Part shown: positions 16,901 through 43,902 of the stretch, piece after piece
How the letters are laid out: each line of letters starts with the position of its first letter
How positions within the stretch are numbered: position 1 is the first letter of the stretch
Virus record (IMG/VR): IMGVR_UViG_3300013126_000037
Span: 1-57,240 of that record
Source: a virus
Lineage: Duplodnaviria > Caudoviricetes
Reading direction: 5' to 3' (one strand)
Length of the DNA stretch: 57,240 nucleotides
The notes under the pieces: generated by a model
Database searches by the model: none
The model's input: only the letters and a program-made list of their open reading frames with translations
Told to the model about the DNA's origin: nothing
Program-made: the position numbers and the translations under genes

Positions 16901-19900
16901 TGAAGCATTCATAAAACGAGTTGCTGCTAACCGTGATTTGTGGAATGGAACCAAAGAGAAAAAAGGATATCTTGATCAGCCTGTAAGTGATATTCAGGCA
17001 AACAAAGAATTACTTAAGGTAATGAACAATGAAATCAGAACTACAGAATTTCTGATTAATAAAATTGTTGAAAACTATCGTAAGCCAGCCAATGCAGCAA
17101 CCGATATGTCCATGCTGTATGAGCAGTTAGCAAAATCCGTAACTCCCCTTGAGGACATGGTTCTTGAGATGAAGCGTCAACATGTGCTCAAAAATGGCAT
17201 GACGGCACAAGAATCATTTTCCACAGCCGTAATGAACGCCACGCAACGTGGTACAGGGGAAGTGCAGTCAGCAATAAAATCTGCTCTTAAACGACAGTCC
17301 GACGTTGAAAATGCACAAATGCAAACACACATGGACGAAGCGCGCTTAAATCAAGATGGACACTACAACCTTGTAGCACGTGGCATGCAACGTGTTTTAA
17401 AAGACATTGAACGCATGGAAGATGCATTTAGCTTCTTGTCAAAAGACAAGAAGTCTATACCTGTAGACACATCTCAAGTCAACGCACAATTAAAACAACA
17501 TGGCGACTATGTATCGTTTATTGTCCTTGACGAGCACGTCAAAGGTGCAACGTCTCAATCATGGCTGTCGCTTCGAGGGCAACGCATCTTAGTGCCATCT
17601 AGTTTTTACAATGCCACCACAGGTCGTGTGACGTTTAAAAGTAATCATTCGTTCCTGCCAAATAACCTGACACCAATGGAAAAGCAAGCTTACATTCTCA
17701 CGTCATGGTTTGTAGAAAACAATGCTGTAGATGGACTACCTATCGGTAGAGCATTATCTGAAAACGTACGCAATTTGTTTAGCCGAGCAATTTCTGATTT
17801 TGATACATCAAAACAAGCAGAACGGCAGTTTAAGGCTACAGTGCTTCATTATACAAATGATGTTCTTAACTCACTTGTTATGCGATTCCCTCTGCGTAAT
17901 GAAAACCTCCGGTACACAAACACTGGAACAATAACAATAAAAGATCAAGTTCCATCAGACGTGCCGAAGAAAATACAATCATGGCTTGCAAACAATGATG
18001 TCAACTGGTTCCGATATTCAACAAAGGCTCGCAACTTTAACTTTGAGCAGCTATTGACTCGCCTAAGAGCCGATGGGATTGAGGTGTCATATCTGTCAAA
18101 CAAAGACTTGTGGGCACTAACTGAAAAACAAGGCGCTGCATCCAATCGTTATTCTGTATGGAAAGAACTTGTTGATGCACGTGACAAATACATTGTTGAC
18201 CCGTTGAAGTCCAGGTTGGAATCGTCAAGCAAATTGATGTCACAAATGTCGCTGCATGAACTCAACATGGAATTGCGTGACTCGGGTTGGACAAACACTG
18301 ATAGGGCGGCATTCTTTGCAGATTACTGGCACATTACGCAGACACGCCAAGGAAACATTCCACGCGACTACATGATTGCAACAGGTGAATTCCCAACACG
18401 TGAGGCAATTCGTCAATACGTAGACAAAACTATGCAAGGTAAATCCGAAGACGAACGCCTTCTTGCGTATACCGAGCAAGTTAAAAATCTTGATGCCCTT
18501 GAACAGATGATTGCTACTGCTGGCTATGAGGCAACTGTTAAAACATCGTCTATTACACAGGCTGAAGTTAGATACAACAATGACCCAAATTCAAGTTACG
18601 TCTTAACTGGCATCATGCGAGATGTACAGGCTGACGCTCTTGATGGCGAGCAACAACAAGTTCGAGAGACGTTGCTTAGTCAGACAGAGTTGTTGACTGG
18701 TAACGCAAAATCAGTCATGAGTGACTTGTTGACGCAAGTAGGGGAACTCAAAACAGAAGCAAAAAGTTTGATGACAGAGTTCTTAAACAATCCAGAAAAA
18801 CTCAACATCAAAAATATCACGGACATTCTAATTACAGGCTCGCAACCAGCTGGTGCTAGAAACATCAAGGTTCCATCCCTGAAAGGAAAGACAACTGAGC
18901 TTGAATCCGAGACTCGCCGTATGGCTGTCCATGTTGAAGTAAGTGCAACAAACAATCTAAAAACACTGCAAGAGAATCTGAAAGATGGCCCACTATCGTT
19001 GGAAATCAGTCGCAACTTGGCTGAGCTTGGAGTAAACGTTGGACGTGGTCGAGTAAAAATACAAGACCTAATAACCGGGCATTCGTCATTCGTGCCAACG
19101 CGTACAATGACTACAGCGCAGCAACAACAAGTGCAACTTATATCAAGTAAGGTCAAAGCATATGTTCAAGCACAAGCACGTGTACTTATTGGTGCTAGGC
19201 TAGAGTTATTACGTAGTATGAATGACTTCGCATATGTAGGATACGAGTATCGGCAAAATGGTCCAAGTGTAGATGTGTACGAACAAGGCGTAAAAAAGTA
19301 CACAATTGATTATAAGAATGGCAAAGTATCAACAATAAATCACGAGGAAATTTTGGCTATTGGGTCAAAAACATCACCGAGTGAATGGTCTTCTGTCTTA
19401 AATGGTTTAGATGAAGGTTTCCAGAACCAAGTAAAAACACTAGATATCGCACAACTCAAGCAATTAGATTTGATGATTACTATTGCTAAGCGTCCAGGTG
19501 AAGCATACATTGGTGGCTCAATAGAAACGCATGCCGATGCAGTTAAAACACTAATTGAAAGCATTCGCACTAATGCAAAGGCAGTACCTGCGGTGTATTG
19601 GCACGGTATTGCAAAAATGCAACGCCCTGAAGAGCCTGGAGCCGAGATGTACACACAGCCCGCAATGTCGCCAGCAAGAGTAGACATGGAATACGGCACT
19701 ATCGACCCTAGTACGAGGCGTACGTTTGTAAACCCAGTTATTGACAAATGGTTGCATTCGTCTACTGGGCAGCCACAACGTGTTGTTCTTAATCACAACA
19801 ATGAGGTTGGGCGTGATGAGTACGGCTACACTGTATACCGTGAAGACGGTAATCGTAGTCATATATATCGCAACCTAGTCGAGTCTGGGCTTAGCCGAAA

Positions 19901-24983: not shown

Positions 24984-25808
24984 TTATCCTTCACCAAACA
25001 ATTTGTCCAGAGTTGTAAACACCCTGTTTGCCTGACGCATATTTGTTTCCACGACAGAAACATCAGTTGGTTCTGCTGTAGCCCAATGTTTCCATAGAGC
25101 GTGCAAAGTAACCATGTGTGCCTTCTGCCATTTACCAATCAGGCACTTTGTCCTGGCAGCCAACTCATCGGGAGACACTCCGTGATGAACCATCTGCCTC
25201 AAAACAATATGCACTCCCTGCCATTCACCAATGGTGAACAATGACGCTCTGGCTTCCGACATAAACGATGTTCGATAGGCGATAAACAATGCCTTTGCGG
25301 GATCTTCGTCAGTTGGAAGTTTGATTGTCCGTTTGCGTGTCCCCCGTTGGGGGACTATAGGGGGTATATATTCTTCTTTATGTATATTCTTCAATGTAAT
25401 GGGGGTGTTGATTTCTGCACCCTCCCCCCTGTTGATTTCTGCACCCTCCCCCTCTGTTGCTGCACTAAAACCATCAGGCAAGATGATGTAGCCATTGCTT
25501 GTCTGCCTTCCGCACATCGCATGTCTTGTGTCTACACGAAGCACGGTATAAGCCCGTGTGGTGACCGTAGAGAGACTTTTGATGCACTGACTGACTAATC
25601 TGCTACTCATGCCAGTTTCGTTGGCTATGGTGGCAATTGAAGGGCAACTGAACCCCGTCTCGTCAGCGTGTAATGACAAGCATGTCAGCACCATCCATTC
25701 GCTCGGTGTAAAGTCCTTCAGACAAGTAAGGAGTTCGTGATGTAGCACCACGAACCCCTTGCTTAACCGCTTCTTGTTGATTGAACTACCCTGAAACAAC
25801 CCAATCAT
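24984..25808 (-). CDS. Replication initiator (N-terminal winged HTH, lambda O-like architecture)
   Basis: 'L..HAD..G.SCPSIATIA.ETGMS.R.V...IK.L' HTH_36-like motif, 'SNGY.I', internal iteron repeats, upstream of loader and dnaB. Confidence 0.85.
   Translation of the reverse strand: MIGLFQGSSINKKRLSKGFVVLHHELLTCLKDFTPSEWMVLTCLSLHADETGFSCPSIATIANETGMSSRLVSQCIKSLSTVTTRAYTVLRVDTRHAMCGRQTSNGYIILPDGFSAATEGEGAEINRGEGAEINTPITLKNIHKEEYIPPIVPQRGTRKRTIKLPTDEDPAKALFIAYRTSFMSEARASLFTIGEWQGVHIVLRQMVHHGVSPDELAARTKCLIGKWQKAHMVTLHALWKHWATAEPTDVSVVETNMRQANRVFTTLDKLFGEG
25407..25465. repeat. Iteron-like 24-bp tandem repeats (putative replication origin)
   Basis: GTTGATTTCTGCACCCTCCCCC at 25407 and 25431, partial GTTGCTGCAC at 25456, next to an AT-rich patch at 25365-25400 inside the initiator gene. 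Confidence 0.75.
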
Positions 25809-26377
25809 TTTTCTCTATGATAAGGACAATAGGCACAAAGTTTTACGTCATTGGTAAGCAAGCACACTGCTGTGTCAAGAACTTGATTTGCAACAGTTGT
25901 GCTCAGCCCTACAGGAACAGGCACGCTATCGCTGATGCTCTTCTCTGTCACAGGCGTTCCCCTTACAACCTCCGTCAATGTGTCTACCGTCCACTCCTTT
26001 CGTTCTGCTTCGTCAAGTAATTTTCGTTGCTCTTCCACATCAAGTTTGCTTACAGCTCGATGATGTGTCCAAGACAGATTTGCGTTTCTGTTTTCTGGAG
26101 GAACAGATCGAGCAACCCATGCAAAGTTAGCAAGGGCGCTGTAAGTAAGCTTAGTGCTTTCAAGAGCTTGACTATACTTCTCGCCGTATCGCGTGTTGCC
26201 ATAGTTCAAGGCATCGCCGAGCATCCACTGTATCGCACCGTTCATTGTGTACAAGCGATTAAGCAGAACCTCCCATTGGTCAAATGAGAGGTCTGCGGTA
26301 AACGCTAATCCAGTTGGTGTGCCGTGAACTCCATCAGGGAATTCCTTAATCTTGCTCAGTTCGCTCATCAGACTCAT
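25805..26377 (-). CDS. LmbU-like DNA-binding protein
   Basis: 'W.LGD.LNYG..RYGEKY..A', 'WVAR.....R...LSW.HH..V', 'L..A....WT...L' pattern. Confidence 0.7.
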   Translation of the reverse strand: MSLMSELSKIKEFPDGVHGTPTGLAFTADLSFDQWEVLLNRLYTMNGAIQWMLGDALNYGNTRYGEKYSQALESTKLTYSALANFAWVARSVPPENRNANLSWTHHRAVSKLDVEEQRKLLDEAERKEWTVDTLTEVVRGTPVTEKSISDSVPVPVGLSTTVANQVLDTAVCLLTNDVKLCAYCPYHREK

Positions 26378-26921
26378 CCTTTGTGATGCCAGTGAACGTC
26401 ACCGATTCCCCGCCAAGCTCAATGCGTAGTCCCTTTGGCATGAAATCAACGATTTTCAGCCATCGTTCTACTTGTTCCTTAGGCAGCTTGCTGACTAACA
26501 CTGACTGCTTGACGGCTTCAGGTGCATGCTTCAGTGCCCAAGGCGTGAACAAGTCTTGGTCTTCAATGACGAGTTTGTCCTTTGTTGTCCTAAAAGAAAC
26601 TTTTCCGTAGGGTGACGTGTAAGTCTTACTCCCCTTAAGCAACAATGACTTAGCCACATCTGCGGCGCTTACACCGTAACGAAGGTCTAGCCACTTCATG
26701 CGTGACTCAAGTCTTTTGATGCGTGCTTCGCAGTTAGCAACGATTGACTTCATCATCAGGCGCTCAGCTGCAATCTTTGATTCAGTTTCAAGCATGCGTT
26801 TCTGCAATATCCACAGTTGCTTTTCATCCTCAACATGACCATCAATCTGCCATCCTTGGATACCAACAACTTCGCCCGTCTCGGTGTCGATAATCCAATC
26901 GTCTTCAATTACAGTTGCCAT
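26346..26921 (-). CDS. Host-nuclease inhibitor Gam-like / Gp157-like protein
   Basis: Coiled coil followed by 'KTYTSPYGKVSFRT' as in the Mu Gam family; adjacent to the putative SSAP. Confidence 0.65.
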   Translation of the reverse strand: MATVIEDDWIIDTETGEVVGIQGWQIDGHVEDEKQLWILQKRMLETESKIAAERLMMKSIVANCEARIKRLESRMKWLDLRYGVSAADVAKSLLLKGSKTYTSPYGKVSFRTTKDKLVIEDQDLFTPWALKHAPEAVKQSVLVSKLPKEQVERWLKIVDFMPKGLRIELGGESVTFTGITKDESDERTEQD

Positions 26922-27544
26922 TACAGATTCACCTCCGGTATTAACATAGTCTCGGGTGCGTCTTCCATGAACAAGTCGGCCTCTGCTTCAGCAGCATCTG
27001 CGTAACTGGCAAGTACTTGGGCTGCGGCAGCAAGTGATTCGGCGTTAGGTTTACTTGTTGGCCATGCTCTAGTGAATATGGCTTTACATTCATCAGTGGA
27101 GATGCTGACTCCCCATATACGGCGGCACTGCTGAACGTATGGGTTTGGAGCCTTCTGTACGGTAGGTTGTGCTTCTATAACTAATGCTCCAGGTATTGGT
27201 GCGTCAACAATACGCTCGCCTTCATCGAGTTCGTCGAGAGCATATTGAGTGCCATAGCCAGCCATCAGTAGCGCACGCCCGACTGCTCCGGTGAGAGATT
27301 TCTCTTCAAAATCAGGAAAGTGCGCGCGATGCTCACGCTTGTGTCCAGTTGCAACCACTCGCCCTTGTGGGTCGGTGATTGATGCACGGGACAAGCACGA
27401 TACCTCGTCAGTGTCAACTATCTCAGCGTTGATGCCCCAGCCATCCGATACGGGATGCTCTTCCCTAAAAAGAGCAATCCTGACGTAAACGGGGGCGTAT
27501 AATTTGCCCCCTTTCATTTTGACCAAGTGGTCTTCAATTCTCAT
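26921..27544 (-). CDS. Putative single-strand annealing recombinase (Rad52/Sak-like fold)
   Basis: 'LY.PV..R...FREEHP', 'A.I.D..GRV.ATGH', 'EK..T.AVGRAL...GYG' pattern; recombination-module context. Confidence 0.6.
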   Translation of the reverse strand: MRIEDHLVKMKGGKLYAPVYVRIALFREEHPVSDGWGINAEIVDTDEVSCLSRASITDPQGRVVATGHKREHRAHFPDFEEKSLTGAVGRALLMAGYGTQYALDELDEGERIVDAPIPGALVIEAQPTVQKAPNPYVQQCRRIWGVSISTDECKAIFTRAWPTSKPNAESLAAAAQVLASYADAAEAEADLFMEDAPETMLIPEVNL

Positions 27545-30266: not shown

Positions 30267-30902
30267 CTACGAGAGCATCCCTGCCACCGTTGTGAGCAGT
30301 ACACGTGTTGGACTGCCAATCATCGTGTACGTGTGGCGAGATGTCTCACCAATCTTGACGCTGACACAGGTGAAATACGTGTCATCGTCAGGACGGCGGA
30401 ACTGCACATGAACAGCGCCCCTCGAACTGTTGGACGAGAGTTCGATGATTTCGACATCGCCCTTGTCATCGGAAAGGCGATTGTGCGTAATCTGCATCGA
30501 CTTACGTACAAAGACGTTGTCGAACTTTGCGACTGCATCCAGCACGTCCAACGTGCACAACCGATGTTGGTCACTGAGAGCTTGAAGCACTTCGTGGATG
30601 CCCGCTGCGTCCGTCTTGACGTACCAGTGAAAGAACTGGCACATCTCAGGGTGCGACTGAATCAGCGATGGTTGCTGATACAACTCGGCAGAAACAGGGG
30701 TGTTTCCATTCTCTGATAATCCGTCCAGGCTGAAGACTTCCAACTTTACGATGTGAAACTTGGACGCTTCATTGACGAGTGCGTCAGCCAGTTTGCGGTG
30801 TGGGAAGAAGGCGTTGCCATCGCAGACATAGATGTCCACGTCTGCCCACTCGTTCGACTCTTCATTGACAACATGCGTAACACGCAAATAAATCTTGTTC
30901 AT
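30267..30902 (-). CDS. Hypothetical protein
   Basis: Start moved to ATG 30902 (RBS GAGGAGG, 5-nt spacer). Confidence 0.7.
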   Translation of the reverse strand: MNKIYLRVTHVVNEESNEWADVDIYVCDGNAFFPHRKLADALVNEASKFHIVKLEVFSLDGLSENGNTPVSAELYQQPSLIQSHPEMCQFFHWYVKTDAAGIHEVLQALSDQHRLCTLDVLDAVAKFDNVFVRKSMQITHNRLSDDKGDVEIIELSSNSSRGAVHVQFRRPDDDTYFTCVSVKIGETSRHTYTMIGSPTRVLLTTVAGMLS

Positions 30903-30914
30903 ACAAACCTCCTC

Positions 30915-30942
30915 GCTGGTGATTCGCCCCACCAGCAGGGCG
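30915..30942 (-). ncRNA. Predicted H-type pseudoknot in mRNA leader (copy 1)
   Basis: CGCCC-U-GCUGGUG-GGGCG-AAU-CACCAGC directly before GAGGAGG; second copy shows compensatory changes. Confidence 0.7.
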
Positions 30943-30950
30943 CTCAAACA

Positions 30951-31788: not shown

Positions 31789-32398
31789 GAGGAACCTCCT
31801 TGTTGAGAATGACGGCGTGTACTTGTTCCACCGTCAATGGTTTGATTTTGTAGTTGAGTTCAGGGTCATCACTGCGGCAGTCGCATGCCCCACCGCAACA
31901 TGCACAACTCTCACGTTTCTGACACCAGCACTGACGGCAGTCAGACAACCGACTCTCAATGTGCGATGGATACTTGATGTAATTAAGCACTGGTACGCCG
32001 TTGAGAGCAACCGTCAGTTCAAACTCAAAGCGAAGCACCTCATGCTTGACCGTGATGTACACGTGAGCAAAAGATGCTTGTGTTGTGAGTTCTAACCACT
32101 TGTTCCAGTTGCCAACCATGTGTACGTTGACAGTGATGTCGTTTGGATACGCATTACAGATGCTCACCAACAGGTTGGATGGCGTGACCGTGCCGGGGAA
32201 GTTATGCCCGACATTGCCACAGACCACACTAGTCTCACACTTGTATGGGTTGCCCCATGCGACAGCGTGAAACAACTCAGGAGTCACAAGCAGTTCTGTA
32301 CCAGCACCACACGCCCACGTAGTGGACGGGTGCGTGATGATTTTCTGCACAAGAGACTGAACATCAGACTCATGATAATGACTAAAACGAGAATCCAT
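31781..32398 (-). CDS. Hypothetical protein with Cys-rich C-terminus
   Basis: Start at ATG 32398 (RBS GAGGAGG); 'CRQCWC....CACCGGACDC'. Confidence 0.65.
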   Translation of the reverse strand: MDSRFSHYHESDVQSLVQKIITHPSTTWACGAGTELLVTPELFHAVAWGNPYKCETSVVCGNVGHNFPGTVTPSNLLVSICNAYPNDITVNVHMVGNWNKWLELTTQASFAHVYITVKHEVLRFEFELTVALNGVPVLNYIKYPSHIESRLSDCRQCWCQKRESCACCGGACDCRSDDPELNYKIKPLTVEQVHAVILNKEVPLD

Positions 32399-32410
32399 AC
32401 AAACCTCCTC

Positions 32411-32438
32411 GCCTGTGTTTCGCCCCACAGGCAGGGCG
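32411..32438 (-). ncRNA. Predicted H-type pseudoknot in mRNA leader (copy 2)
   Basis: CGCCC-U-GCCUGUG-GGGCG-AAA-CACAGGC directly before GAGGAGG. Confidence 0.7.
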
Positions 32439-32448
32439 CTGGAAAAAA

Positions 32449-32808: not shown

Positions 32809-33257
32809 GGAATCACCTCCAGTTCCATCATCAACAAACGGTCATCGAACTCACCAAGCAGTTCCCCAAGGTTCCACAGAAACCAAGTGAACGCATAGTC
32901 GTAATCCTCGCCGAGGTTCTCAGGCACGCCGTGACCATGCACATAGTCAAACACGTCAGAGATGACAACGTCATAACCAATCGTGTCAGCAAGCGTGCGA
33001 ACATACTCACCAAACGCCATGCAGCGGGGCATCGTTGTCAAGGCGCCATCCTCTGCTTCCTCCTCGGTCACTTCATTGTAGTGATGCTCGAGCAAGTCCA
33101 CTGCAACATCACCGTCAACACCCCACTTCGACAAACCAAACCACAACGCCTTGTGAAAGACAGGAGCGTCAGATGCAAACAACGAACGAACATACGACTG
33201 CAAACGCAGTCCTTCAGCGACCAACATTGGCTTATCGCCATTCAGATAATCAGACAT
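32805..33257 (-). CDS. Acidic hypothetical protein
   Basis: Start moved to ATG 33257 (RBS GAAAGGTGA); D/E-rich. Confidence 0.65.
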   Translation of the reverse strand: MSDYLNGDKPMLVAEGLRLQSYVRSLFASDAPVFHKALWFGLSKWGVDGDVAVDLLEHHYNEVTEEEAEDGALTTMPRCMAFGEYVRTLADTIGYDVVISDVFDYVHGHGVPENLGEDYDYAFTWFLWNLGELLGEFDDRLLMMELEVIP

Positions 33258-33465
33258 AAATGTCACCTTTCGTAGAAACAATCCAAACAAGACAAACCCC
33301 AACAATACACACCAATACACATATCACTCACAACAGATACATCCGTGACAAACAAAGATGACCGCTAGGGCATTTTTCTTGACGAATCAAGGCTAAAACC
33401 CAAGATTTGGTACATCTATACGGGAACTCTTGTAGAGTCTGTGTATGGGCTTCCTACGTGCCTAC

Positions 33466-33560
33466 GGAGGCATGCAGAAATCGACCCCCTCCGTGTCGCT
33501 AAGTCACGGGGAGGGTGCAGAATCTGCACCGCAGGTATTGGGGAGGGTGCAGAATCTGCA
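33466..33560 (+). repeat. Intergenic copies of the initiator-gene iteron
   Basis: GGGGAGGGTGCAGAATCTGCA at 33508 and 33540; degenerate GGAGGCATGCAGAAATCGAC at 33466; the 15-mer core is the exact reverse complement of the 25407/25431 repeats. Confidence 0.8.
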
Positions 33561-33562
33561 TC

Positions 33563-33783
33563 CCACAGTAAAAGTACAAGTCGTGGCACGCCACTAACTC
33601 AAACGGAACGGTACTTGCGGGGATGATATAGATTGTGCGGGCAATCAATTTTCAAATACTTGCGTGGTGTATGTGTGCTACCGCCAAGCCCTGGCAATCC
33701 AAACCAGAGCAGTACTAGCGGGTTGTGTGTGTGGTCTCGATTTCGAGACAAAAAAAGGGCGGGGAGCCGAAGCCCCCCCACCC
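33563..33783 (-). promoter_or_regulatory. Cassette repeat R1 (terminator + hairpin + three boxes + degenerate -10 block)
   Basis: Boxes TACTTGCG 33612, TACTTGCG 33657, TACTAGCG 33713; CCAC..GTAC block 49 bp before box 1; TTCG-loop terminator with T7. Confidence 0.75.
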
Positions 33784-33786
33784 TGT

Positions 33787-34272
33787 TTAGTTGTCCGCCC
33801 AGTGAGCGATGAGAACATCAAGAGCGTTCTTGAGTTCTGCTCGAACAATGACCTTGATGTCATCGTTGGATGGGACGTTCTCCCTGACCGACTCGTCAAT
33901 GAGTTCGGCAAGTTGGGACTTGAACGCCCACGAATCGCAGTAGCGTTCTACAGCTGCGTCAACGTCAATGTCTGGCTCGTCCGTGTCCTCCAAATCGCTG
34001 ACACGGCTTTCGATGTCGTCAACCTTGCTGTCAAGGTCGGAGATGTCCGACTCAGCCTCGCCGATACGCTCAACGAGTTTGCACTCGTTGTTGTCGGTAG
34101 CGACAACGTGGTCTACGAACTCCCGGCGAATCTCTTCCTTGAAAGGGTCGATTGAAGCGTCGATGATTTGCTGGATGTCTTCGACTCGTGTGCCAGTTGG
34201 AGTCAGTTCGACTTTCATGGCTCCGATGAGTTCGATGACGAGGTCTGCGATGCGTTTGGACTGATTGTCCAT
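33787..34272 (-). CDS. Acidic coiled-coil protein (cassette cargo)
   Basis: Heptads ISDLDSK-VDDIESR-VSDLED; RBS GGGAGA; sits between R2 and R1. Confidence 0.75.
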   Translation of the reverse strand: MDNQSKRIADLVIELIGAMKVELTPTGTRVEDIQQIIDASIDPFKEEIRREFVDHVVATDNNECKLVERIGEAESDISDLDSKVDDIESRVSDLEDTDEPDIDVDAAVERYCDSWAFKSQLAELIDESVRENVPSNDDIKVIVRAELKNALDVLIAHWADN

Positions 34273-34326
34273 GGTGGTTCTCCCACACGTCCTAAGTGAT
34301 GCAGTCGATGTACGCTACACCCTTGA

Positions 34327-34488
34327 ACACTATATAAGTACAGATGCAGTAGGATGCCTAACTGTAGCCAACCCATACCTGCGTGGTTTATGTAGATTGT
34401 GGCGGTTGCTTAATTTCCCAATACTAGCGTGGTGTGCTTGTGGTTTTTGCCAACGGCAAAAAAAGGGAGGGGGCTTTCGCCCCATCCC
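34327..34488 (-). promoter_or_regulatory. Cassette repeat R2
   Basis: ACAC 34327, boxes 34376 and 34422, GAAA-loop terminator. Confidence 0.85.
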
Positions 34489-34489
34489 A

Positions 34490-35296
34490 TCAACCCATCG
34501 GGAGAGTCACCCACTTTTCCGATGGACCGTGTGCCCGGATTGCAACGTTGCGGGTTCCGTCGCATTTCAGGCATCGTTCGCACGGTATCAGTTCCATGCG
34601 TCCCTTGAACTGCGGGTCGGACACACACGACGTGGTGCGCGTCAATGACCGAAACAGTTCTTTGTAGTTGTCATGCGGAAGCACAGTGAATGTGCCCCAC
34701 CCGGCATGCACAGCACGGTAATGGTCATCGGGTGAATCACACGAAGCCATCACGGTACCACGAAGCCATTCGCCATGCTTCGCATTCCACTGGTGAGTGT
34801 ACCCAGTACGCCCTTTCGCATACGGTAGTATGCATTCCCACACGTGCTGTGGGATAGCCGCTGGGTCACCATAGGCACCCATGCGTAATGGGCGACCCGT
34901 CGCCGCTATCGCACGTTGCACAGTGTGAACATCTGGCATGGGAACATTACCGCGTTCCCATGCACGCCAGATTGTCAAAGGACCCTGCCCGACATTTACG
35001 TAACAGGTCCTCATTACTTTGACTTTGCCCTTTGCATTGCGGCGTTCCTGCATCATGTGTGGGCATCGATTCTTTCCGATACCGCAGATGCTACCGTCCA
35101 ATCCAAGCTTTATCGCTTGAACTGGGTCAATATCCAAACGCATGATATACGTTTGAATCATTGCACCAGTCTTGCGATTACGGGAAAGATTGGACAATCC
35201 CGAAACAAACAATCCAATGGGGGCGCCATCGATTGCAGACGGTCCTGCCCACAGCAGGAACGTGTTATGACGTGAAATACCGTGTTTTGTAAACAT
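34490..35296 (-). CDS. Conserved-looking Cys-motif phage protein, possibly metal/Fe-S binding (cassette cargo)
   Basis: Start at ATG 35296 (RBS GAAAGG); motifs NRKTG.M.Q, SICG...CPH, CYV, R.G.YGDP, TGYTHQW, MASCD, C..C..C, AHG. Confidence 0.7.
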   Translation of the reverse strand: MFTKHGISRHNTFLLWAGPSAIDGAPIGLFVSGLSNLSRNRKTGAMIQTYIMRLDIDPVQAIKLGLDGSICGIGKNRCPHMMQERRNAKGKVKVMRTCYVNVGQGPLTIWRAWERGNVPMPDVHTVQRAIAATGRPLRMGAYGDPAAIPQHVWECILPYAKGRTGYTHQWNAKHGEWLRGTVMASCDSPDDHYRAVHAGWGTFTVLPHDNYKELFRSLTRTTSCVSDPQFKGRMELIPCERCLKCDGTRNVAIRAHGPSEKWVTLPMG

Positions 35297-35318
35297 GGCA
35301 TACCTTTCAAACATCACA

Positions 35319-35494
35319 GTGTAATCACTATTAATTACACTTTATAAGTACACATCGGACAATCTGCTATACCGTAGCCAACCCATACCTGCGAGGTTGA
35401 TGTAGTTTGTTTGCTTTGACTATGTTGGCAATACTAGCGTGGTGTGTTTGTGGTTTGCCGCACAGGCAAAAAAAGTGGAGGGCCGAAGCCCTCC
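35319..35494 (-). promoter_or_regulatory. Cassette repeat R3
   Basis: ACAC 35337, boxes 35386 and 35432, cTTCGg terminator. Confidence 0.85.
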
Positions 35495-35497
35495 TAA

Positions 35498-35818
35498 TTA
35501 CGCTACTACGTAGAACGATGTGTACGACGGTTCGCCGATGTCGTCTGCAAACCGTTGTACTAATGCCTCCCATGCCTTGGTTTGCTCAGGTTCCCACTTT
35601 CCGGGACCGGTGCGATACCCAAGCAGGACGCGAACATCAAGTAACTGAAAGTTACCTTCGTCACATTCTAAAGCGTCTTGAACCTCTGAAAGAATACGGG
35701 TTGCTTCCGAAGGCTTTAGAACCTTTTCTTTTACGAGAATATCTACCCAGTCAATAAATGATTCACCTGTAACTGATGCAAATGTGGTTTTTTGTAATCC
35801 ACGTGGTCTGATTTCCAT
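35498..35818 (-). CDS. Hypothetical protein (cassette cargo)
   Basis: RBS GGAGG; start directly follows the upstream stop. Confidence 0.7.
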   Translation of the reverse strand: MEIRPRGLQKTTFASVTGESFIDWVDILVKEKVLKPSEATRILSEVQDALECDEGNFQLLDVRVLLGYRTGPGKWEPEQTKAWEALVQRFADDIGEPSYTSFYVVA

Positions 35819-36049
35819 CTAATCCTCCAATACTGCGTTAACACGTTCCGCTATTTCATCCCATTGTGCGTGCCACAAAAGATGATTAAAGATACTGTGA
35901 AGGGCTGTGCCCTCAGTCATCTTGCCGTCAAAGTCTTCATACACGAATTCCCTGCACCATTCTGCGGTAACAGGTTCTTTCGTTTCTTCTACCTGTAGCA
36001 CCATGCTGTCGCCGTACCACAGCCACAGCTCCTGTGAAATCCATTCCAT
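35819..36049 (-). CDS. Acidic, Trp-rich 76-aa protein (cassette cargo)
   Basis: Start at ATG 36049 after the GGAGG of R4; ends WDEIAERVNAVLED. Confidence 0.7.
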   Translation of the reverse strand: MEWISQELWLWYGDSMVLQVEETKEPVTAEWCREFVYEDFDGKMTEGTALHSIFNHLLWHAQWDEIAERVNAVLED

Positions 36050-36053
36050 GATA

Positions 36054-36229
36054 GTAACCCTCCATTGGTTACACTTTATTTGTACACTTCCACACGTACC
36101 GCTAACTGTAGCCAACCCATACTTGCGAGGTGTGTGTAGTTTGTCCTGGTTGACTATGTTTGCAGTACTAGCGTGGTGCTTGTGTGCTTCGAGGTCAATG
36201 CACAAAAAAAGAGGGGCTTTCGCCCCTCT
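36054..36229 (-). promoter_or_regulatory. Cassette repeat R4
   Basis: ACAC 36071, boxes 36120 and 36166, GAAA-loop terminator. Confidence 0.85.
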
Positions 36230-36232
36230 GAT

Positions 36233-36670
36233 TCAAACGTACTTTGTGATTTTCACGCCGCCACGTTTACCAAAGTGTACTTTGAAATCAGGACAACCGT
36301 ATTCTAGATTGTCTGGGTTCATGTAGTACACTTCAAACGACGCACGGGTGTCCACGCAGGGATAACGGCGCTGATTATTTATGCGCTCTTGCAATTCCGC
36401 CTTGATTGCCTTGACGCTAGTAAATACCTCAAAGCCATCAAACGCATAATAATGTTCATTGACAAAGCGTGCGTAGAAATACGCAGGACGTCTTGTTGGC
36501 TTTATAACACGTTGCGTCAAGGTTTCGTAAATATACGCAGGATATGCCTTCATGCTGCGGCTCCTGTTAGCGTTGACGCCTAACGCGCAACGCATTGCGT
36601 TGCTAAACGATAGGAATTCCCCGTGAACGTACGTCTCACCTAAAGGTGAACGTTGTTTTACCTGATACAT
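36233..36670 (-). CDS. Hypothetical 145-aa protein (cassette cargo)
   Basis: Start at ATG 36670 after the GGAGG of R5. Confidence 0.7.
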   Translation of the reverse strand: MYQVKQRSPLGETYVHGEFLSFSNAMRCALGVNANRSRSMKAYPAYIYETLTQRVIKPTRRPAYFYARFVNEHYYAFDGFEVFTSVKAIKAELQERINNQRRYPCVDTRASFEVYYMNPDNLEYGCPDFKVHFGKRGGVKITKYV

Positions 36671-36674
36671 GATA

Positions 36675-36850
36675 ATAACCCTCCAATGGTTACACTTTAT
36701 ATGTACACTTGACGCAGTGTAGCCAACCAAAGCCAACCTGTACCTGCGTGAGTTATGTAGTTCGTTTGGTTTATCTAATATGCCAATACTAGCGTGGTGC
36801 GTGTGTGGCCCGGATCCCGGGCATAAAAAAACCCGAGGTTTCCCTCGGGT
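36675..36850 (-). promoter_or_regulatory. Cassette repeat R5
   Basis: ACAC 36692, boxes 36741 and 36787, ACCCGAGG-GAAA-CCTCGGGT terminator with T-run. Confidence 0.85.
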
Positions 36851-36905
36851 CTGCATACATCGGTAGCCGGGAGTATCACCAGTAGCAGCTACCTGATTAT
36901 GCATA

Positions 36906-37127
36906 TTAGAACAAACTCATAATGTCGTCGTCTACGCCGTCTTGCTCGGACATAGCGTGTTCAGCTGCGTCGCGCACGGCTTGCTTCCAGAACTCAGCGT
37001 CCTCGGGTTCAGGACTGTAATAATCCCAGAGGTCCACGTCAGCCAAGTCGTCGAGTCCAACGCCGATACGGCGTGCAATGTAGTTCGAGACCCGTGTCCA
37101 GAACTGGTCGAATGTCATGCTAATCAT
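36906..37127 (-). CDS. Small highly acidic protein (cassette cargo)
   Basis: 73 aa, about 17 D/E versus 5 K/R; RBS supplied by R6. Confidence 0.75.
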   Translation of the reverse strand: MISMTFDQFWTRVSNYIARRIGVGLDDLADVDLWDYYSPEPEDAEFWKQAVRDAAEHAMSEQDGVDDDIMSLF

Positions 37128-37131
37128 GATA

Positions 37132-37305
37132 GTAAGCCTCCATCGCTTACACTATATAGGTACACTTCCACGTGTACCGCTAACTGTAGCCAACCCATAC
37201 CTGCGTGGTTTATGTAGTTTGTTTGGTTAAGGCTATTTTGCAGTACTAGCGTGGTATGTGTGTGGCCCGGATGCCGGGCATAAAAAAAGGAGGCCGAAGC
37301 CTCCT
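37132..37305 (-). promoter_or_regulatory. Cassette repeat R6
   Basis: ACAC 37149, boxes 37198 and 37244, cTTCGg terminator. Confidence 0.85.
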
Positions 37306-37309
37306 AAAA

Positions 37310-37426
37310 TTAGAACTCAAAGTCCACGAGGTAAACCCCGTTGGACACGCACCACATCCAACACAGTCCGATGGTTATAAAGATTGCCACCATTAGGGCA
37401 TCCCACAATCTAATCTTCGTCTTCAT
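37310..37426 (-). CDS. Small membrane protein, 38 aa (cassette cargo)
   Basis: ATG 37426 with RBS GGAGG; one hydrophobic helix. Confidence 0.6.
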   Translation of the reverse strand: MKTKIRLWDALMVAIFITIGLCWMWCVSNGVYLVDFEF

Positions 37427-37655
37427 CGCTAAATACCTCCTCCTGACACACCGGGCAAAAACCCGACATGAAGAATTCTCGAGCAGTAATCTCGAGGTGC
37501 TGCGGAATACTGTTATTCCATCGCATTGCCACGTGGTCATCTTCGCTAACAACAACCTTCACCTTGTCGCCACACAGCACACACGGCGCACTGTATTCGA
37601 CATCTGTTGACATAATGGATGCATCGCGTACGGTGCATAACTCAAAGTAACGCAT
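37410..37655 (-). CDS. Small zinc-finger-like protein (cassette cargo)
   Basis: ATG 37655; CVLC...REFFMSGFCPVC; acidic tail. Confidence 0.75.
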   Translation of the reverse strand: MRYFELCTVRDASIMSTDVEYSAPCVLCGDKVKVVVSEDDHVAMRWNNSIPQHLEITAREFFMSGFCPVCQEEVFSDEDED

Positions 37656-37659
37656 GATA

Positions 37660-37834
37660 GTAAGCCTCCATCGCTTACACTCTATAAGTACACTTGACGC
37701 AGTAGCACCAACTATACCAAACCTATACGTGCGAGGACTATGTAGTTCGCCCTGGTTGGTCATATTGCAGTACTAGCGTGGTGTGTGTATGCTCCGCTTT
37801 TTTGGACAAAAAAAGTGGAGGGCCGAAGCCCTCC
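37660..37834 (-). promoter_or_regulatory. Cassette repeat R7
   Basis: ACAC 37677, boxes 37726 and 37771, cTTCGg terminator. Confidence 0.85.
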
Positions 37835-37837
37835 GAG

Positions 37838-38020
37838 TCAATCCTTCTTTGTTAGGTGCTCGTGAATCTCGGGTATATACCCGATAGTCCACGCTACAAC
37901 AATGGACGCCAAAAACGAAGCGTACCAGAAGTACGACTTGAAGCCCCCGGCGAACATCAGCGATACGACGGCGTGAATAAACGCCACAGCGAATACACCC
38001 AGCAAAAGTCCTTTTTTCAA
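37838..38020 (-). CDS. Two-helix membrane protein, 60 aa (cassette cargo)
   Basis: TTG start with RBS GGAGG, preceded by a strong GTTCCCCGG/CCGGGGAAC hairpin. Confidence 0.65.
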   Translation of the reverse strand: MKKGLLLGVFAVAFIHAVVSLMFAGGFKSYFWYASFLASIVVAWTIGYIPEIHEHLTKKD

Positions 38021-38066
38021 GGCAAAACCTCCGTTCCCCGGTTTCCCGGGGAACTGTCACAAACCC

Positions 38067-38267
38067 CTACGATGCTTGACGAATGACAGCCCTGACAAAG
38101 TTTGTCAGGTGGTGAAGGGTACACATCTCGCTGTCAAACTCGAAGCACCCTACGCTGTCAATATCTACGGTTGTTATCCCGTTTTTATCGAGTTCGACTT
38201 CGCAGTCGTACCCTTCAAAACGAAACTCAATCCGTAAGAATCCGTTTTGACGATATGAATACGTCAT
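38067..38267 (-). CDS. Hypothetical 66-aa protein (cassette cargo)
   Basis: RBS GAAAGGA; first gene after R8. Confidence 0.7.
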   Translation of the reverse strand: MTYSYRQNGFLRIEFRFEGYDCEVELDKNGITTVDIDSVGCFEFDSEMCTLHHLTNFVRAVIRQAS

Positions 38268-38290
38268 ATTCGATTCCTTTCACAAAACAA

Positions 38291-38467
38291 TGTAGGCAAT
38301 CCCGCCATACACTTTATAAGTACACTTGACGCAGTGTAGCCAACCAGAGCCAACCTATACGTACGAGGTGTATGTAGTTTGTCCCTATTGACTAGATCCG
38401 CATTACTAGCGTGGTTGTGAGATGCTCCACGCTTTTAGGCAAAAAAAGTGGAGGGCCGAAGCCCTCC
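38291..38467 (-). promoter_or_regulatory. Cassette repeat R8
   Basis: ACAC 38309, boxes 38358 and 38404, cTTCGg terminator. Confidence 0.85.
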
Positions 38468-38481
38468 GCCTCTAGGTTTCC

Positions 38482-38577
38482 CTAGAGGTTAATGACGATG
38501 AAGGCGCCGATAAGCGCCGTTGCCACTGCAAGGGCAATTACCGTTGCAGTGGTGGTGCGAATAGTTATACTTTTCAT
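38482..38577 (-). CDS. Small membrane peptide, 31 aa (cassette cargo)
   Basis: ATG 38577 with RBS AAAGGAG; MKSITIRTTTATVIALAVATALIGAFIVINL. Confidence 0.55.
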   Translation of the reverse strand: MKSITIRTTTATVIALAVATALIGAFIVINL

Positions 38578-38600
38578 ACCATTCTCCTTTCTAAAAGATT

Positions 38601-38618
38601 GGAGGGCCGAAGCCCTCC
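38601..38618 (-). terminator. Isolated copy of the repeat's cTTCGg hairpin (weak terminator or processing/stability hairpin)
   Basis: GGAGGGCCGAAGCCCTCC, identical to the R3/R7/R8 stem but with an interrupted T-tract and no boxes. Confidence 0.55.
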
Positions 38619-38620
38619 GT

Positions 38621-38890
38621 TCAGACAACGACACGACGGTACGATATGTACATCGTGTACCGCCCGTCGTAACTTTGGAGCCATGCCTTAGCATGACGCC
38701 AATTCCCGCCGTACTTGACGACGTGCCATTCCTCACGATTGAATCTCGGGAGGATGAGAAAAGCGGAGTCAATCGCTTCACCCATGTACACGTGCAACGA
38801 CTCAGTTTGCAGCGCCCATTCCTGACGCTTTGAAACAACGATGTCGCCAAACATATTGGCGACCTTGACTGTAATGACTTCATTCGTCAT
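38621..38890 (-). CDS. Hypothetical 89-aa protein (first cassette cargo)
   Basis: ATG 38890 after the AGGAGG of R9. Confidence 0.7.
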   Translation of the reverse strand: MTNEVITVKVANMFGDIVVSKRQEWALQTESLHVYMGEAIDSAFLILPRFNREEWHVVKYGGNWRHAKAWLQSYDGRYTMYISYRRVVV

Positions 38891-38895
38891 GATTC

Positions 38896-39015
38896 GTAAC
38901 CTCCTAGTTACACCTATAACGTACAAATAACGCAGTATCGCCAACCGAAGACACACCCTACCTGCGAGGGGGAAGTAGTTTCACCTTCCCCTTTATATAC
39001 ACGCTACCTGCGTGG
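38896..39015 (-). promoter_or_regulatory. Cassette repeat R9 (array-leading copy, no terminator)
   Basis: ACAC 38910, TACCTGCG boxes at 38959 and 39005. Confidence 0.8.
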
Positions 39016-39036
39016 CAGTCAGACACTCCATGCATG

Positions 39037-39138
39037 CCCCCTGCCTCCTCCTACCCCCTCCCCCTCCCCCGTACACCAATACACCCCCTATATGGCAAGC
39101 CCCCTACCCCATGTAATCCATTAATCCTCCCCGCCCCC
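39037..39138. other. C-run tract (G-runs on minus strand) at the divergence point of the two genome arms
   Basis: Nine runs of 4-5 C in about 100 bp of non-coding DNA. Confidence 0.7.
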
Positions 39139-39202
39139 TACAGAACATATTTTCTCCAGCCCTCCTCTACCGACGTAGAATATACTATACCTGCCAAATG
39201 TT

Positions 39203-39231
39203 TTGCACTTACACACAAAGAAATGTATAGT
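39203..39231 (+). promoter_or_regulatory. Sigma70-like promoter of the rightward arm
   Basis: TTGCAC-N17-TATAGT, followed by RBS GGAGG and ATG 39249. Confidence 0.75.
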
Positions 39232-39248
39232 AGTAGTGGAGGTTTGTT

Positions 39249-39488
39249 ATGAAGAAAGTTGATTTACGGTCGGAGTACGACCAGATTCTTAGTGATATGC
39301 TGCTGATGCAGTATCGGGTTGAGGTTTTTCGTCGTCGTATGCAGGTTGAGCATAGTGTTAGTTGCAGTCAGGTGAGTTTGGCTATTGACGAGTCTGTTGA
39401 AGAGTTGACTGACCTTGGGACTAGACTTTGTTTGGCTCCTGTAGTGAAGAAGTCGTGGTGGGAAATTGAGTTTAAGCAACGCTCGTAG
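39249..39488 (+). CDS. Hypothetical protein
   Basis: RBS GGAGG; first gene after the promoter. Confidence 0.7.
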   Translation: MKKVDLRSEYDQILSDMLLMQYRVEVFRRRMQVEHSVSCSQVSLAIDESVEELTDLGTRLCLAPVVKKSWWEIEFKQRS

Positions 39489-39759
39489 CATTGGGTCGGT
39501 TTGTAAGCGTGATAAGCGAAGGCGTGAATATCGTCCAGCTGTGCGTTTGCTCGATCACATATCGCAATCTACCCAGGAAGTGATTTGGGTTTGGTATAAG
39601 GCAGGTGTTAGTCGTCGAAAAATGAGCGAGGCACTGCTTAAATTAGGTGTGCCTAGTCCTCCGATGAAAGTGCCGTGGGGTGATAGTGCAATCCGTGTTG
39701 TTGTAGAGAAGTATAAGAGGCTGGAGGCGGCTAATGGATCGGCGGAAGAAGTTAACTGA
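39466..39759 (+). CDS. Small basic protein resembling the DNA-binding 'recombinase' domain of large serine recombinases (no catalytic domain)
   Basis: 'GVSRRKMSEALLKLGVPSP....WGDSAIRVVV' pattern. Confidence 0.5.
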   Translation: MSLSNARSIGSVCKRDKRRREYRPAVRLLDHISQSTQEVIWVWYKAGVSRRKMSEALLKLGVPSPPMKVPWGDSAIRVVVEKYKRLEAANGSAEEVN

Positions 39760-40105
39760 CGAGCAGGTTGCTGAGATTCGTGCGTTGTTTGCAGCTGGTG
39801 ACACGGGTGAGGCTATCGCCAGGCAATATGGAATAAGCCCCACTCATGCGTTCAACATCAAGAATAACCAGAAACGTTGTGTAAAGTCTGGCTTCGCAAA
39901 TGTGAGTAGGGCGTTTGCGTGGTTGCTTAAGGGATATTCTGTAAAGCGTGAGTGCTGGGAGGACGATGAATACCTGCGGTATGACAATCAGTCTCATATG
40001 TTTGTTATGACGTCAGGTGATGACACTTGGCAGTTTGATGTGTTTGAAATCGGCGGTATGGACTTATCTGTACACGATTGGAAGCGAGTAAATAATGAAG
40101 GATGA
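39734..40105 (+). CDS. HTH fused to a DUF2829/Tad2-like domain
   Basis: N-terminal 'KLTDEQVAEIR....G.....IARQYGIS......I'; C-terminal 'F.....A...LLKG.SVKR..W......Y...DLSVHDW'. Confidence 0.6.
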   Translation: MDRRKKLTDEQVAEIRALFAAGDTGEAIARQYGISPTHAFNIKNNQKRCVKSGFANVSRAFAWLLKGYSVKRECWEDDEYLRYDNQSHMFVMTSGDDTWQFDVFEIGGMDLSVHDWKRVNNEG

Positions 40106-43599: not shown

Positions 43600-43902
43600 A
43601 TGGCAAGACCACATGTGAAGCGGACAAAGCTGCATCATCTGTGTGACCGGGCCGGCTTGACGCAACGTATGTTCGCCGAGCAGGTAGGTGCAGATGAATC
43701 AACAACATCTCTATGGCTCAGCGGAAAAAGAATGCCTAGTGCAAATGTAGTACCAAAGATTGCAGAAGTACTTGGGATGGAAGCCAACTACTTACTTGGA
43801 CTGTTTGTGGCTATGGAGCTTCGACGGAATTACGGCGACACGGTATGTAGATTCGTCTACACACATCTGAATCAACTATCGGCGGAAGAAGACTATTCAT
43901 AA
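43600..43902 (+). CDS. XRE/Cro-CI family HTH regulator
   Basis: 'GLTQ..FAEQVG.....TS.W.SGKR.P......KIAEVLG'. Confidence 0.9.
   Translation: MARPHVKRTKLHHLCDRAGLTQRMFAEQVGADESTTSLWLSGKRMPSANVVPKIAEVLGMEANYLLGLFVAMELRRNYGDTVCRFVYTHLNQLSAEEDYS

Follow-up and report, generated by a model that had tools for sequence, protein, structure and literature searches.

Between the small genes of its leftward early arm, an uncultured lake phage (Duplodnaviria; Caudoviricetes) carries nine copies of an intergenic repeat of ~190 nt, here called a cassette, and these copies appear as mosaics of one another. The phage is represented by the IMG/VR virus record IMGVR_UViG_3300013126_000037, a linear entry with a completeness estimate of 92%, which we analysed whole (57,240 bases; hereafter the window). 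Terminase, portal and major head protein are encoded at 48.8–54.8 kb, and the record also encodes a DnaB-type helicase and a DNA methyltransferase. The rightward arm contains genes for dUTPase, endolysin-like, single-strand DNA-binding and helix-turn-helix proteins, while the leftward arm starts at ~39.0 kb with the small genes, followed by the replication genes. Megablast of positions 35000–39500 against a phage collection matched nothing, leaving the record with no close match there.

Repeat finding, blastn of one copy against the record and nhmmer located all nine cassettes on the minus strand, between positions 33540 and 39088, with R9 first and R1 last in transcription order (Table 1). 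The initial annotation, made from the letters of the window, had placed the family at 35460–38467; the family itself is real, and its span exceeds that range. Along the minus strand, each cassette opens with an intrinsic terminator, a short variable hairpin and a CA-rich run with Box1, followed by a position-specific spacer of ~22 nt (V1), a conserved block ending in Box2, a block of at least two types (V2), a promoter-like core and a final hairpin. In R9 a G-rich stretch lies upstream where the other copies have the terminator, and R1, ~60 nt longer than the others, holds an extra second-hairpin/CA-run/Box1-like module (33694–33755) between its terminator and its regular Box1.

Strong minus-strand terminator hairpins with T-runs were found once at each of R1–R8, and terminator-like sites in 33000–39600 numbered 22, compared with 6.1 ± 2.9 in shuffled sequence; in several copies the short variable hairpin pairs with the T-run. 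All 16 window matches of the box motif CCNCGCNNGTA fell inside cassettes and on the minus strand (0.84 expected), Box1 and Box2 being paired at a spacing of 45–46 nt. The core, which consists of TGTAY, eight AT-rich bases and TGTA, is conserved ahead of each gene, and seven of the nine matches to TGTAY-N8-TGTA in the window lie in cassettes (1.3 expected). No AT-rich stretch was found upstream of the core, where the Box1 and Box2 motifs stand instead. Manual attempts to read the core as a sigma-70 promoter, in several hexamer and spacer registers, were rejected, as none of these registers fits all copies.

The final hairpin starts at the second TGTA of the core, and its loop and 3′ arm usually bear the ribosome site. 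Minimum-energy folding recovered this hairpin in 28 of 31 copies, drawn from four phages (the window and three relatives described below), with many different stems, and its folding z-score averaged −1.57 and was below −1 in 23 of the 31. Because R3 and R8 keep the hairpin even though their ribosome site lies further downstream, it is more than a translation signal. In X1, one of four sequencing runs compared with the window below, the R3 hairpin of the dominant sequence departs from that of the window at two positions (35329 and 35333), one change turning a stem G–U into G–C and the other lying in the loop.

A structured leader or antisense RNA was considered and set aside, as RNAalifold predicted no common structure for the boxes on either strand of 24 copies (positions 2–8 of the four phages; four column ranges on the gene strand, the full range in reverse), in an alignment that was not structure-aware and in which even the final hairpin was missed. 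An Rfam search of 33000–39600 yielded nothing above noise and three sub-threshold chance matches. With no conserved RNA fold over them, the boxes are most likely to work as sites in the DNA. A 15-base Box1 pattern gave only single chance matches in genome contigs, among 80 loci listed of at least 120, and no clue to the host; we regard the many single matches in viral and metagenome contigs as chance too, because nhmmer found cassettes only in the three relatives. Two small helix-turn-helix proteins of the rightward arm (39734–40105 and 43600–43902, plus strand), assigned by PHROGs to DNA-binding and XRE-type regulators, are candidates for a box-binding factor.

None of nine early open reading frames (ORFs) scanned reached a curated Pfam family, and a PHROG scan of eight, which left out the three smallest (38482–38577, 37838–38020 and 37310–37420), gave a single match, that of a 275-aa reading of 34490–35317 to phrog_2554, a family of unknown function; the other seven had none. 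The 31-aa hydrophobic ORF follows the lone terminator at 38601–38618 and forms a unit without a cassette of its own. Two relatives (B and D) have an ORF of 29 aa in the corresponding location, 93% identical between them; neither had a BLAST match to the 31-aa ORF of the window, which is itself below the length cutoff of the script.

Table 1. Cassettes, early genes and putative recombination genes of the window
Feature	Position	Strand	Parts and remarks
R9, first of the leftward early array	38887–39088	−	Box1, Box2, promoter-like core, ribosome-site hairpin
R8	38286–38469	−	Terminator 38450–38467; Box1 38404–38414; core 38308–38324; hairpin 38286–38307
R7	37654–37836	−	Terminator 37817–37834; Box1 37771–37781; Box2 37726–37736; core 37676–37692; hairpin with ribosome site 37654–37675
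R6	37126–37307	−	Mosaic copy
R5	36669–36852	−	Mosaic copy
R4	36048–36231	−	Terminator 36210–36229; Box1 36166–36176; Box2 36120–36130; core 36070–36086
R3	35314–35496	−	Terminator 35477–35494; hairpin 35314–35335
R2	34304–34488	−	Exact 38-nt tract 34358–34395 in common with R6
R1, most divergent copy	33540–33784	−	Terminator 33756–33784
Lone terminator hairpin of cassette type	38601–38618	−	Outside cassettes, between gene 9 and the 31-aa ORF
Small early genes between cassettes, overall span	33787–38890	−	
Early gene, rightmost four	38621–38890	−	
Early gene, rightmost four	38482–38577	−	31 aa, hydrophobic
Early gene, rightmost four	38067–38267	−	
Early gene, rightmost four	37838–38020	−	
Early gene, middle four	37410–37655	−	
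Early gene, middle four	37310–37420	−	
Early gene, middle four	36906–37127	−	
Early gene, middle four	36233–36670	−	
Early gene, leftmost four	35819–36049	−	
Early gene, leftmost four	35498–35818	−	
Early gene, leftmost four	34490–35296	−	
Early gene, leftmost four	33787–34272	−	
207-aa ORF	26921–27544	−	Predicted Rad52/Sak-like single-strand annealing fold
191-aa ORF	26346–26921	−	Weakly Mu-Gam-like

The cassettes share exact sub-blocks in changing combinations. A literal search found all five shared strings quoted by the initial annotation exactly, and solely in the copies it had named: R6 and R7 (37125 and 37653), R4 and R6 (36082 and 37160), R5 and R8 (36703 and 38320), R5 and R6 (36801 and 37258), and R3, R7 and R8 (35467, 37807 and 38440). 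To these we add the 38-nt tract of R2, which recurs in R6 at 37180; the longest exact tracts common to two window copies measure 16–38 nt. R6 has an R5-like second hairpin (37262–37280), a Box2b and V2 like those of R4 and R2 (37166–37196) and a ribosome-site hairpin (37126–37147) identical to that of R7. R5 is R8-like through Box2b, V2 and the start of the core (alignment columns 173–217, ~36695–36739; one mismatch in 37 nt), with an R6-like 5′ side and an R4-like 3′ hairpin, and R3, R7 and R8 have identical terminators.

Such a pattern was also significant by permutation. With the window cassettes R1–R9 aligned as W1–W9, a test of the pairwise homoplasy index (PHI) type, limited to sites no more than five informative sites apart, gave a mean incompatibility of 0.407 against 0.563 ± 0.025 in shuffles, neighbouring sites being more compatible than distant ones (p=3e-4, the floor for 3000 column shuffles). 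A screen of 504 parent/parent/child triples, 14 of which were re-run with 400,000 permutations, left six with p × 504 < 0.05; the clearest child was W5, W8-like in columns 173–215, W6-like 5′ and W4-like 3′ of them (p=2.5e-6, the floor). The closest relative of a copy thus shifts along the element, as had been noticed at the outset, in a way that simple duplication does not explain, and tree-like divergence after duplication is rejected by the permutation tests.

We asked whether the mosaic could be an artefact. The window is a metagenome contig, and Logan unitigs break at the exact repeats of 31–38 nt, so chimeric assembly deserved attention, as did the companion idea of tree-like divergence after tandem duplication with chance homoplasy. 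Unitigs of four runs nevertheless agreed with the window, with 0–2 differences per piece (4 of 38 pieces differ), and spanned whole cassettes (R3, R4, R5 and R7 in X1; R3 in X2; and in X3 R7, through two pieces that overlap). The unitigs that span cassettes are longer than the sub-blocks. Because unitigs span the cassettes and three independently assembled relatives show a like mosaic, assembly artefact is unlikely, and with tree-like divergence rejected as above we consider this whole class of explanation to be extremely improbable.

A pattern scan and an nhmmer profile recovered the same cassette family in three further assemblies at ~70–80% nucleotide identity to the window (W): B, an IMG/VR record of 62,008 bases with nine cassettes; C, an IMG/VR contig of 22 kb that ends within the array, with four; and D, a metagenome contig of 11.6 kb with nine, of which the first is truncated where the contig stops. 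Between the cassettes, W, B, D and the available part of C had identical gene content and order, with early proteins 40–92% identical to their orthologs. Since blastn gave no match for C between R9 and R8, a gene swap bounded by these two cassettes was considered; it was rejected, the proteins there being orthologous at 40–49%.

If the copies predated the split of these phages and had since only diverged, every block would find its nearest match in the cassette of equal position in another phage. This was true of V1, for which the nearest neighbour was an ortholog in 21 of 30 copies and never a paralog of the same genome. For V2, by contrast, it was only an ortholog in one copy and a non-ortholog in 22, and for Box2b in two and 20, so that in the promoter-proximal blocks cassettes are usually nearer to cassettes at other positions than to their positional counterpart. 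The V2 of W5 is 100% identical to those of W8, D7 and B9 and 29–57% identical to those of its own orthologs, which have the other V2 type; its second hairpin is 95% identical to that of W6 (orthologs, 37–68%). The ribosome-site hairpin is identical in W6 and W7, and again in C6 and C7, with the B and D orthologs at 23–68%. Tests for a tract of an own-genome paralog in an ortholog background reached the permutation floor of 5e-5 in 18 of 502 cases (×502 = 0.025), and the strongest such tracts lie mostly in columns 173–243.

Exchange between phages at the same position, on top of ancestral polymorphism, could produce mosaics with no exchange between positions. The phages are indeed strongly mosaic of one another, with protein identities of 92% between B and D at gene 9 and 95% between C and D at gene 8a and a switch in nucleotide identity at R8, and at least one switch of closest pair falls within every cassette from R1 to R8. 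Among W, B and D, cassettes did not hold a significant excess of these switches (10 of 24 against 6.8 expected, p=0.11; at another setting 10 of 27, p=0.21). Same-position exchange also cannot account for one and the same V2 or hairpin block standing at several positions, and block types at one position differ among the phages, so that as a sole cause we think it quite unlikely.

The core behaves differently from V1, with a similarity of 0.74 among paralogs of the same genome, 0.75 among orthologs and 0.69 among non-orthologs of other genomes. A core version peculiar to D occurs in D3, D5, D6, D7, D8 and D9, with the same five changes in all six, and W has another; in B several versions occur together, including one of W type (B8) and one of D type (B9). 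The versions can thus work in one genome and stand in for one another, so that no co-adaptation to a changed polymerase has to be invoked. More generally, selection might have driven alternative modules to the same sequence in several cassettes, an idea favoured by the within-genome likeness of cores and by the shared terminator, a near-ideal hairpin that also occurs alone at 38601–38618. Identities of 14–38 nt that include positions variable elsewhere are, however, unreachable by independent point mutation, and the five repeated changes in D and the coexisting cores of B are further arguments against it; we rate such convergence as very unlikely.

Modular shuffling offers another account. Promoter-early stem-loops (PeSLs) of T4-type phages are composites in which a sigma-70 early promoter is coupled with a stem-loop terminator (Arbiol et al. 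2010, PMC2839356); they undergo recombination among themselves and bring about insertions and deletions of genes as well as mini-circles (PMC2839356; Comeau et al. 2014, PMC4122927). In a similar process here, reciprocal crossovers would excise the flanked genes, insert them or change their order, and mosaic cassettes would be the chimeric junctions left behind. The cassette design is that of PeSLs, a terminator and a promoter around genes of no known function, and chimeric PeSLs are the documented product of such shuffling (PMC2839356); the contigs of the relatives also often terminate within the array. Crossover between direct repeats should delete or duplicate genes, but no such change was seen among the four close phages, whose gene set and order between cassettes are identical, and the four runs, at the level of contigs, show no joints or loose ends. 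On balance we find gene shuffling of this kind unlikely.

We therefore favour, as the probable account of these sequences, gene conversion in short patches between dispersed paralogous cassettes, the genes themselves staying unshuffled, with each cassette making a small early gene or gene pair a separate transcription unit. As dispersed direct repeats with conserved stretches, the cassettes would be a substrate for mosaic formation: a short non-reciprocal homologous exchange, by gene conversion or by template switching during replication, would copy a sub-block between cassettes, the donor lying in the same genome or in a co-infecting relative, while the genes between cassettes stay in place. 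The terminator would close the upstream gene and the remainder of the cassette would restart transcription for the next. The initial annotation had allowed for crossovers or gene conversion inside the element; the paralog-like sub-blocks agree with conversion, and because gene order and content are retained in four phages, non-reciprocal exchange is favoured over crossing-over. Exchange may start in the conserved boxes. The limits of the 18 strongest tracts cluster at columns 109–114, 173–182 and 202–217 and at the alignment end, next to the CA-run and Box1, the end of Box2 and the core, but these stretches have no informative sites and the clustering is partly by construction.

A candidate enzyme for the exchanges is the 207-aa protein. 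Its AlphaFold model (predicted local distance difference test score 79) has a helix, three strands and a helix in residues 19–94, and its best Foldseek matches in the Protein Data Bank (PDB) were RAD52, Mgm101 and Sak of phage 80alpha (E 5e-4 to 6e-3, probability 0.82–1.0, template modelling (TM) score 0.3–0.47). Pfam returned zero matches at E up to 10, a PDB sequence search nothing meaningful and PHROGs at most families of unknown function; an Atlas lead pointed to PF27148, with SSAP_Sak on 10–13% of the members of some clusters. For the neighbouring 191-aa ORF, Pfam Phage_Mu_Gam scored E=0.021 and 15.2 bits, below the curated cutoff of 28.3, a PDB sequence search gave nothing meaningful, and an Atlas match to Gam clusters (score 0.95, TM 0.71) serves as a lead only. 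The earlier assignment of 26346–27544 to a single-strand annealing protein and a Gam-like protein is thus borne out in its first part by a predicted Rad52/Sak-type fold and is weak, below cutoff, in its second.

Several observations weigh against the gene-conversion reading. Promoters and exchanges are predictions from sequence, and a sigma-70 consensus scan of 33000–39600 gave five sites (6.8 ± 2.7 in shuffles), with none on the gene strand in cassettes. In windows of 20 sites the PHI-type signal was gone (W2–8, p=0.11; W3–8, p=0.47), and compensatory changes in stems, together with block replacements, may raise local compatibility. Incongruence between sub-block trees, for which the initial annotation had proposed a test, proved weak: approximately unbiased (AU) tests of the monophyly of positional orthologs, at five positions and for two halves, with groups picked after the trees had been seen, were non-significant in eight of ten cases, the two nominal signals (position 5 in the 3′ half, p=0.019; position 7 in the 5′ half, p=0.04) not surviving correction. 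The half trees rest on 65 and 71 columns and are weakly informative; position labels change 11 times on the 5′-half tree and 14 times on the 3′-half tree against a minimum of eight, and starred branches of the latter force several origins for positions 3, 4, 5, 7 and 9. What looks like an own-genome paralog tract in one phage may instead be a change in the ortholog taken as background, so that the direction of each exchange is presumed, and selection might contribute to the homogenization of cores within a genome. Finally, the comparison covers four close genomes, each assembled from a metagenome, and the window itself may derive from one of the runs.

Read depth in X1 was uneven across the array. 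The three unitigs over 34366–38466 (R2 to R8) had mean depths of 46–51, compared with 19–21 for the flanking unitigs of 33.8 kb and 13.5 kb, and the exact-repeat nodes at 34358–34395 and 35464–35494 reached 140 and 125. The raised block is a single haplotype in X1, possibly the window's own source. These depths are unitig means, and the step could reflect either a terminal repeat, long and direct, or co-occurring strains with this block in common.

In SPO1-, T5- and Twort-like phages, early gene blocks for host takeover lie in long terminal repeats, as rows of small early genes that each have their own strong promoter and terminator, and a terminal repeat yields higher read depth. The window resembles these phages in its row of small early genes and in the raised depth over 34366–38466; it differs in a depth ratio of ~2.4 rather than 2, from unitig means, and in that its terminal repeat is only a candidate. 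A joint reading, which we hold to be rather unlikely, would treat the 4.1 kb that run from R8 to R2, a single haplotype with ~2.4-fold the depth found elsewhere in the genome, as a direct terminal repeat of great length, with each cassette present twice per virion. A polymerase of non-host type or a phage factor would bind the two phased boxes and read the promoters, and regeneration of the repeat in each round, helped by the Rad52-like protein, would drive continuous conversion of cassettes. The terminal repeat would then be a built-in homogenizer of early promoters that leaves gene order untouched.

More distant relatives (loci L311–L316, contigs of 31–62 kb) encode an annealing protein 62–65% identical to that of the window and have four to six cassettes each in the 4–5 kb of DNA upstream, with the same order of parts and a box spacing of 46 nt. 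At minimum, the cassette that precedes the gene-5 homolog occupies an equivalent position. Their box and core sequences are clade-specific, another word replacing the first TGTAY; the same architecture with clade-specific sequence is the pattern expected of concerted evolution. The clade is abundant in lake metagenomes, where one of its proteins has 800 homologs, and it includes tens of contigs of ~60 kb.

Other repeats and an unusual gene lie elsewhere in the window. A C-rich repeat with an embedded near-palindrome occurs as two tandem copies at 25401–25454, inside a replication-initiator-like helix-turn-helix gene (24984–25808), with related copies just downstream of R1 (33517–33560) and in the divergent region upstream of R9 (39037–39066); these could serve as iterons of an origin or as operators. 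Repeated 5′ leaders form a second, smaller family, made up of two 45-nt copies of a hairpin with a ribosome site (30900–30944 and 32396–32440, minus strand; 89% identical) immediately before two genes of the middle region. On the plus strand, 7989–22514 is a single ORF of 4841 aa with acidic, Gly- and Pro-rich tandem repeats around 10448–10633; it matched no family in Pfam, PHROGs or a PDB sequence search, and a regular-expression scan for polymerase-like motifs in it and three other large ORFs gave zero matches.

Terminator–promoter cassettes are thought to drive plasticity of early regions by moving genes, whereas here it is the control units that swap pieces. Across four phages with early proteins 40–92% identical and no rearrangement, cassettes appear to exchange tens of bases and to be partly homogenized in each genome. 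If this is borne out, the early promoters of such phages form a family that evolves by gene conversion, which bears on inferences of regulatory evolution, on the dating of recombination and on metagenome assembly, where contigs break at cassettes. The clade could also offer natural replicates for the minimal homology used by a Rad52-type phage recombinase.

Repeated intergenic elements that supply promoters are known from another virus. Halovirus HF2 has intergenic repeats of 29 and 58 bp with archaeal-type promoters (PMC8707807), to which the promoter-like cassettes of the lake phage are comparable. The HF2 repeats are short, and the available part of that report does not mention a terminator, phased boxes or a mosaic analysis. 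For exchange among dispersed repeats, the parallel lies in the gene conversion and concerted evolution of bacterial ribosomal RNA operons (PMC8022953): there, paralogs exceed orthologs in similarity over tracts, exchange is non-reciprocal and gene order is kept. The cassettes differ in being ~190-nt non-coding phage regulatory units with tracts of tens of bases, and a literature search on concerted evolution of intergenic phage promoters turned up nothing on phage regulatory cassettes.

PeSL cassettes are the closest known kind to those of the lake phage. Both are intergenic composites of a terminator and an early promoter, or promoter-like element, repeated among small genes of unknown function, and both would act as insulating stop-and-start units that are also substrates for recombination. 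In both, conservation over at least roughly 100 bp gives sites for homologous recombination, and chimeras are the footprint of exchange. PeSL promoters have strong sigma-70-like −35 and −10 elements and an AT-rich upstream region (PMC2839356); no host-type −35/−10 consensus was found in the lake-phage cassettes, which are about twice as long and have two phased boxes 45–46 nt apart upstream of the core. Their carrier is an unrelated phage of ~60 kb, and across the four close phages no flanked gene is gained, lost or reordered: sub-blocks are exchanged, not genes.

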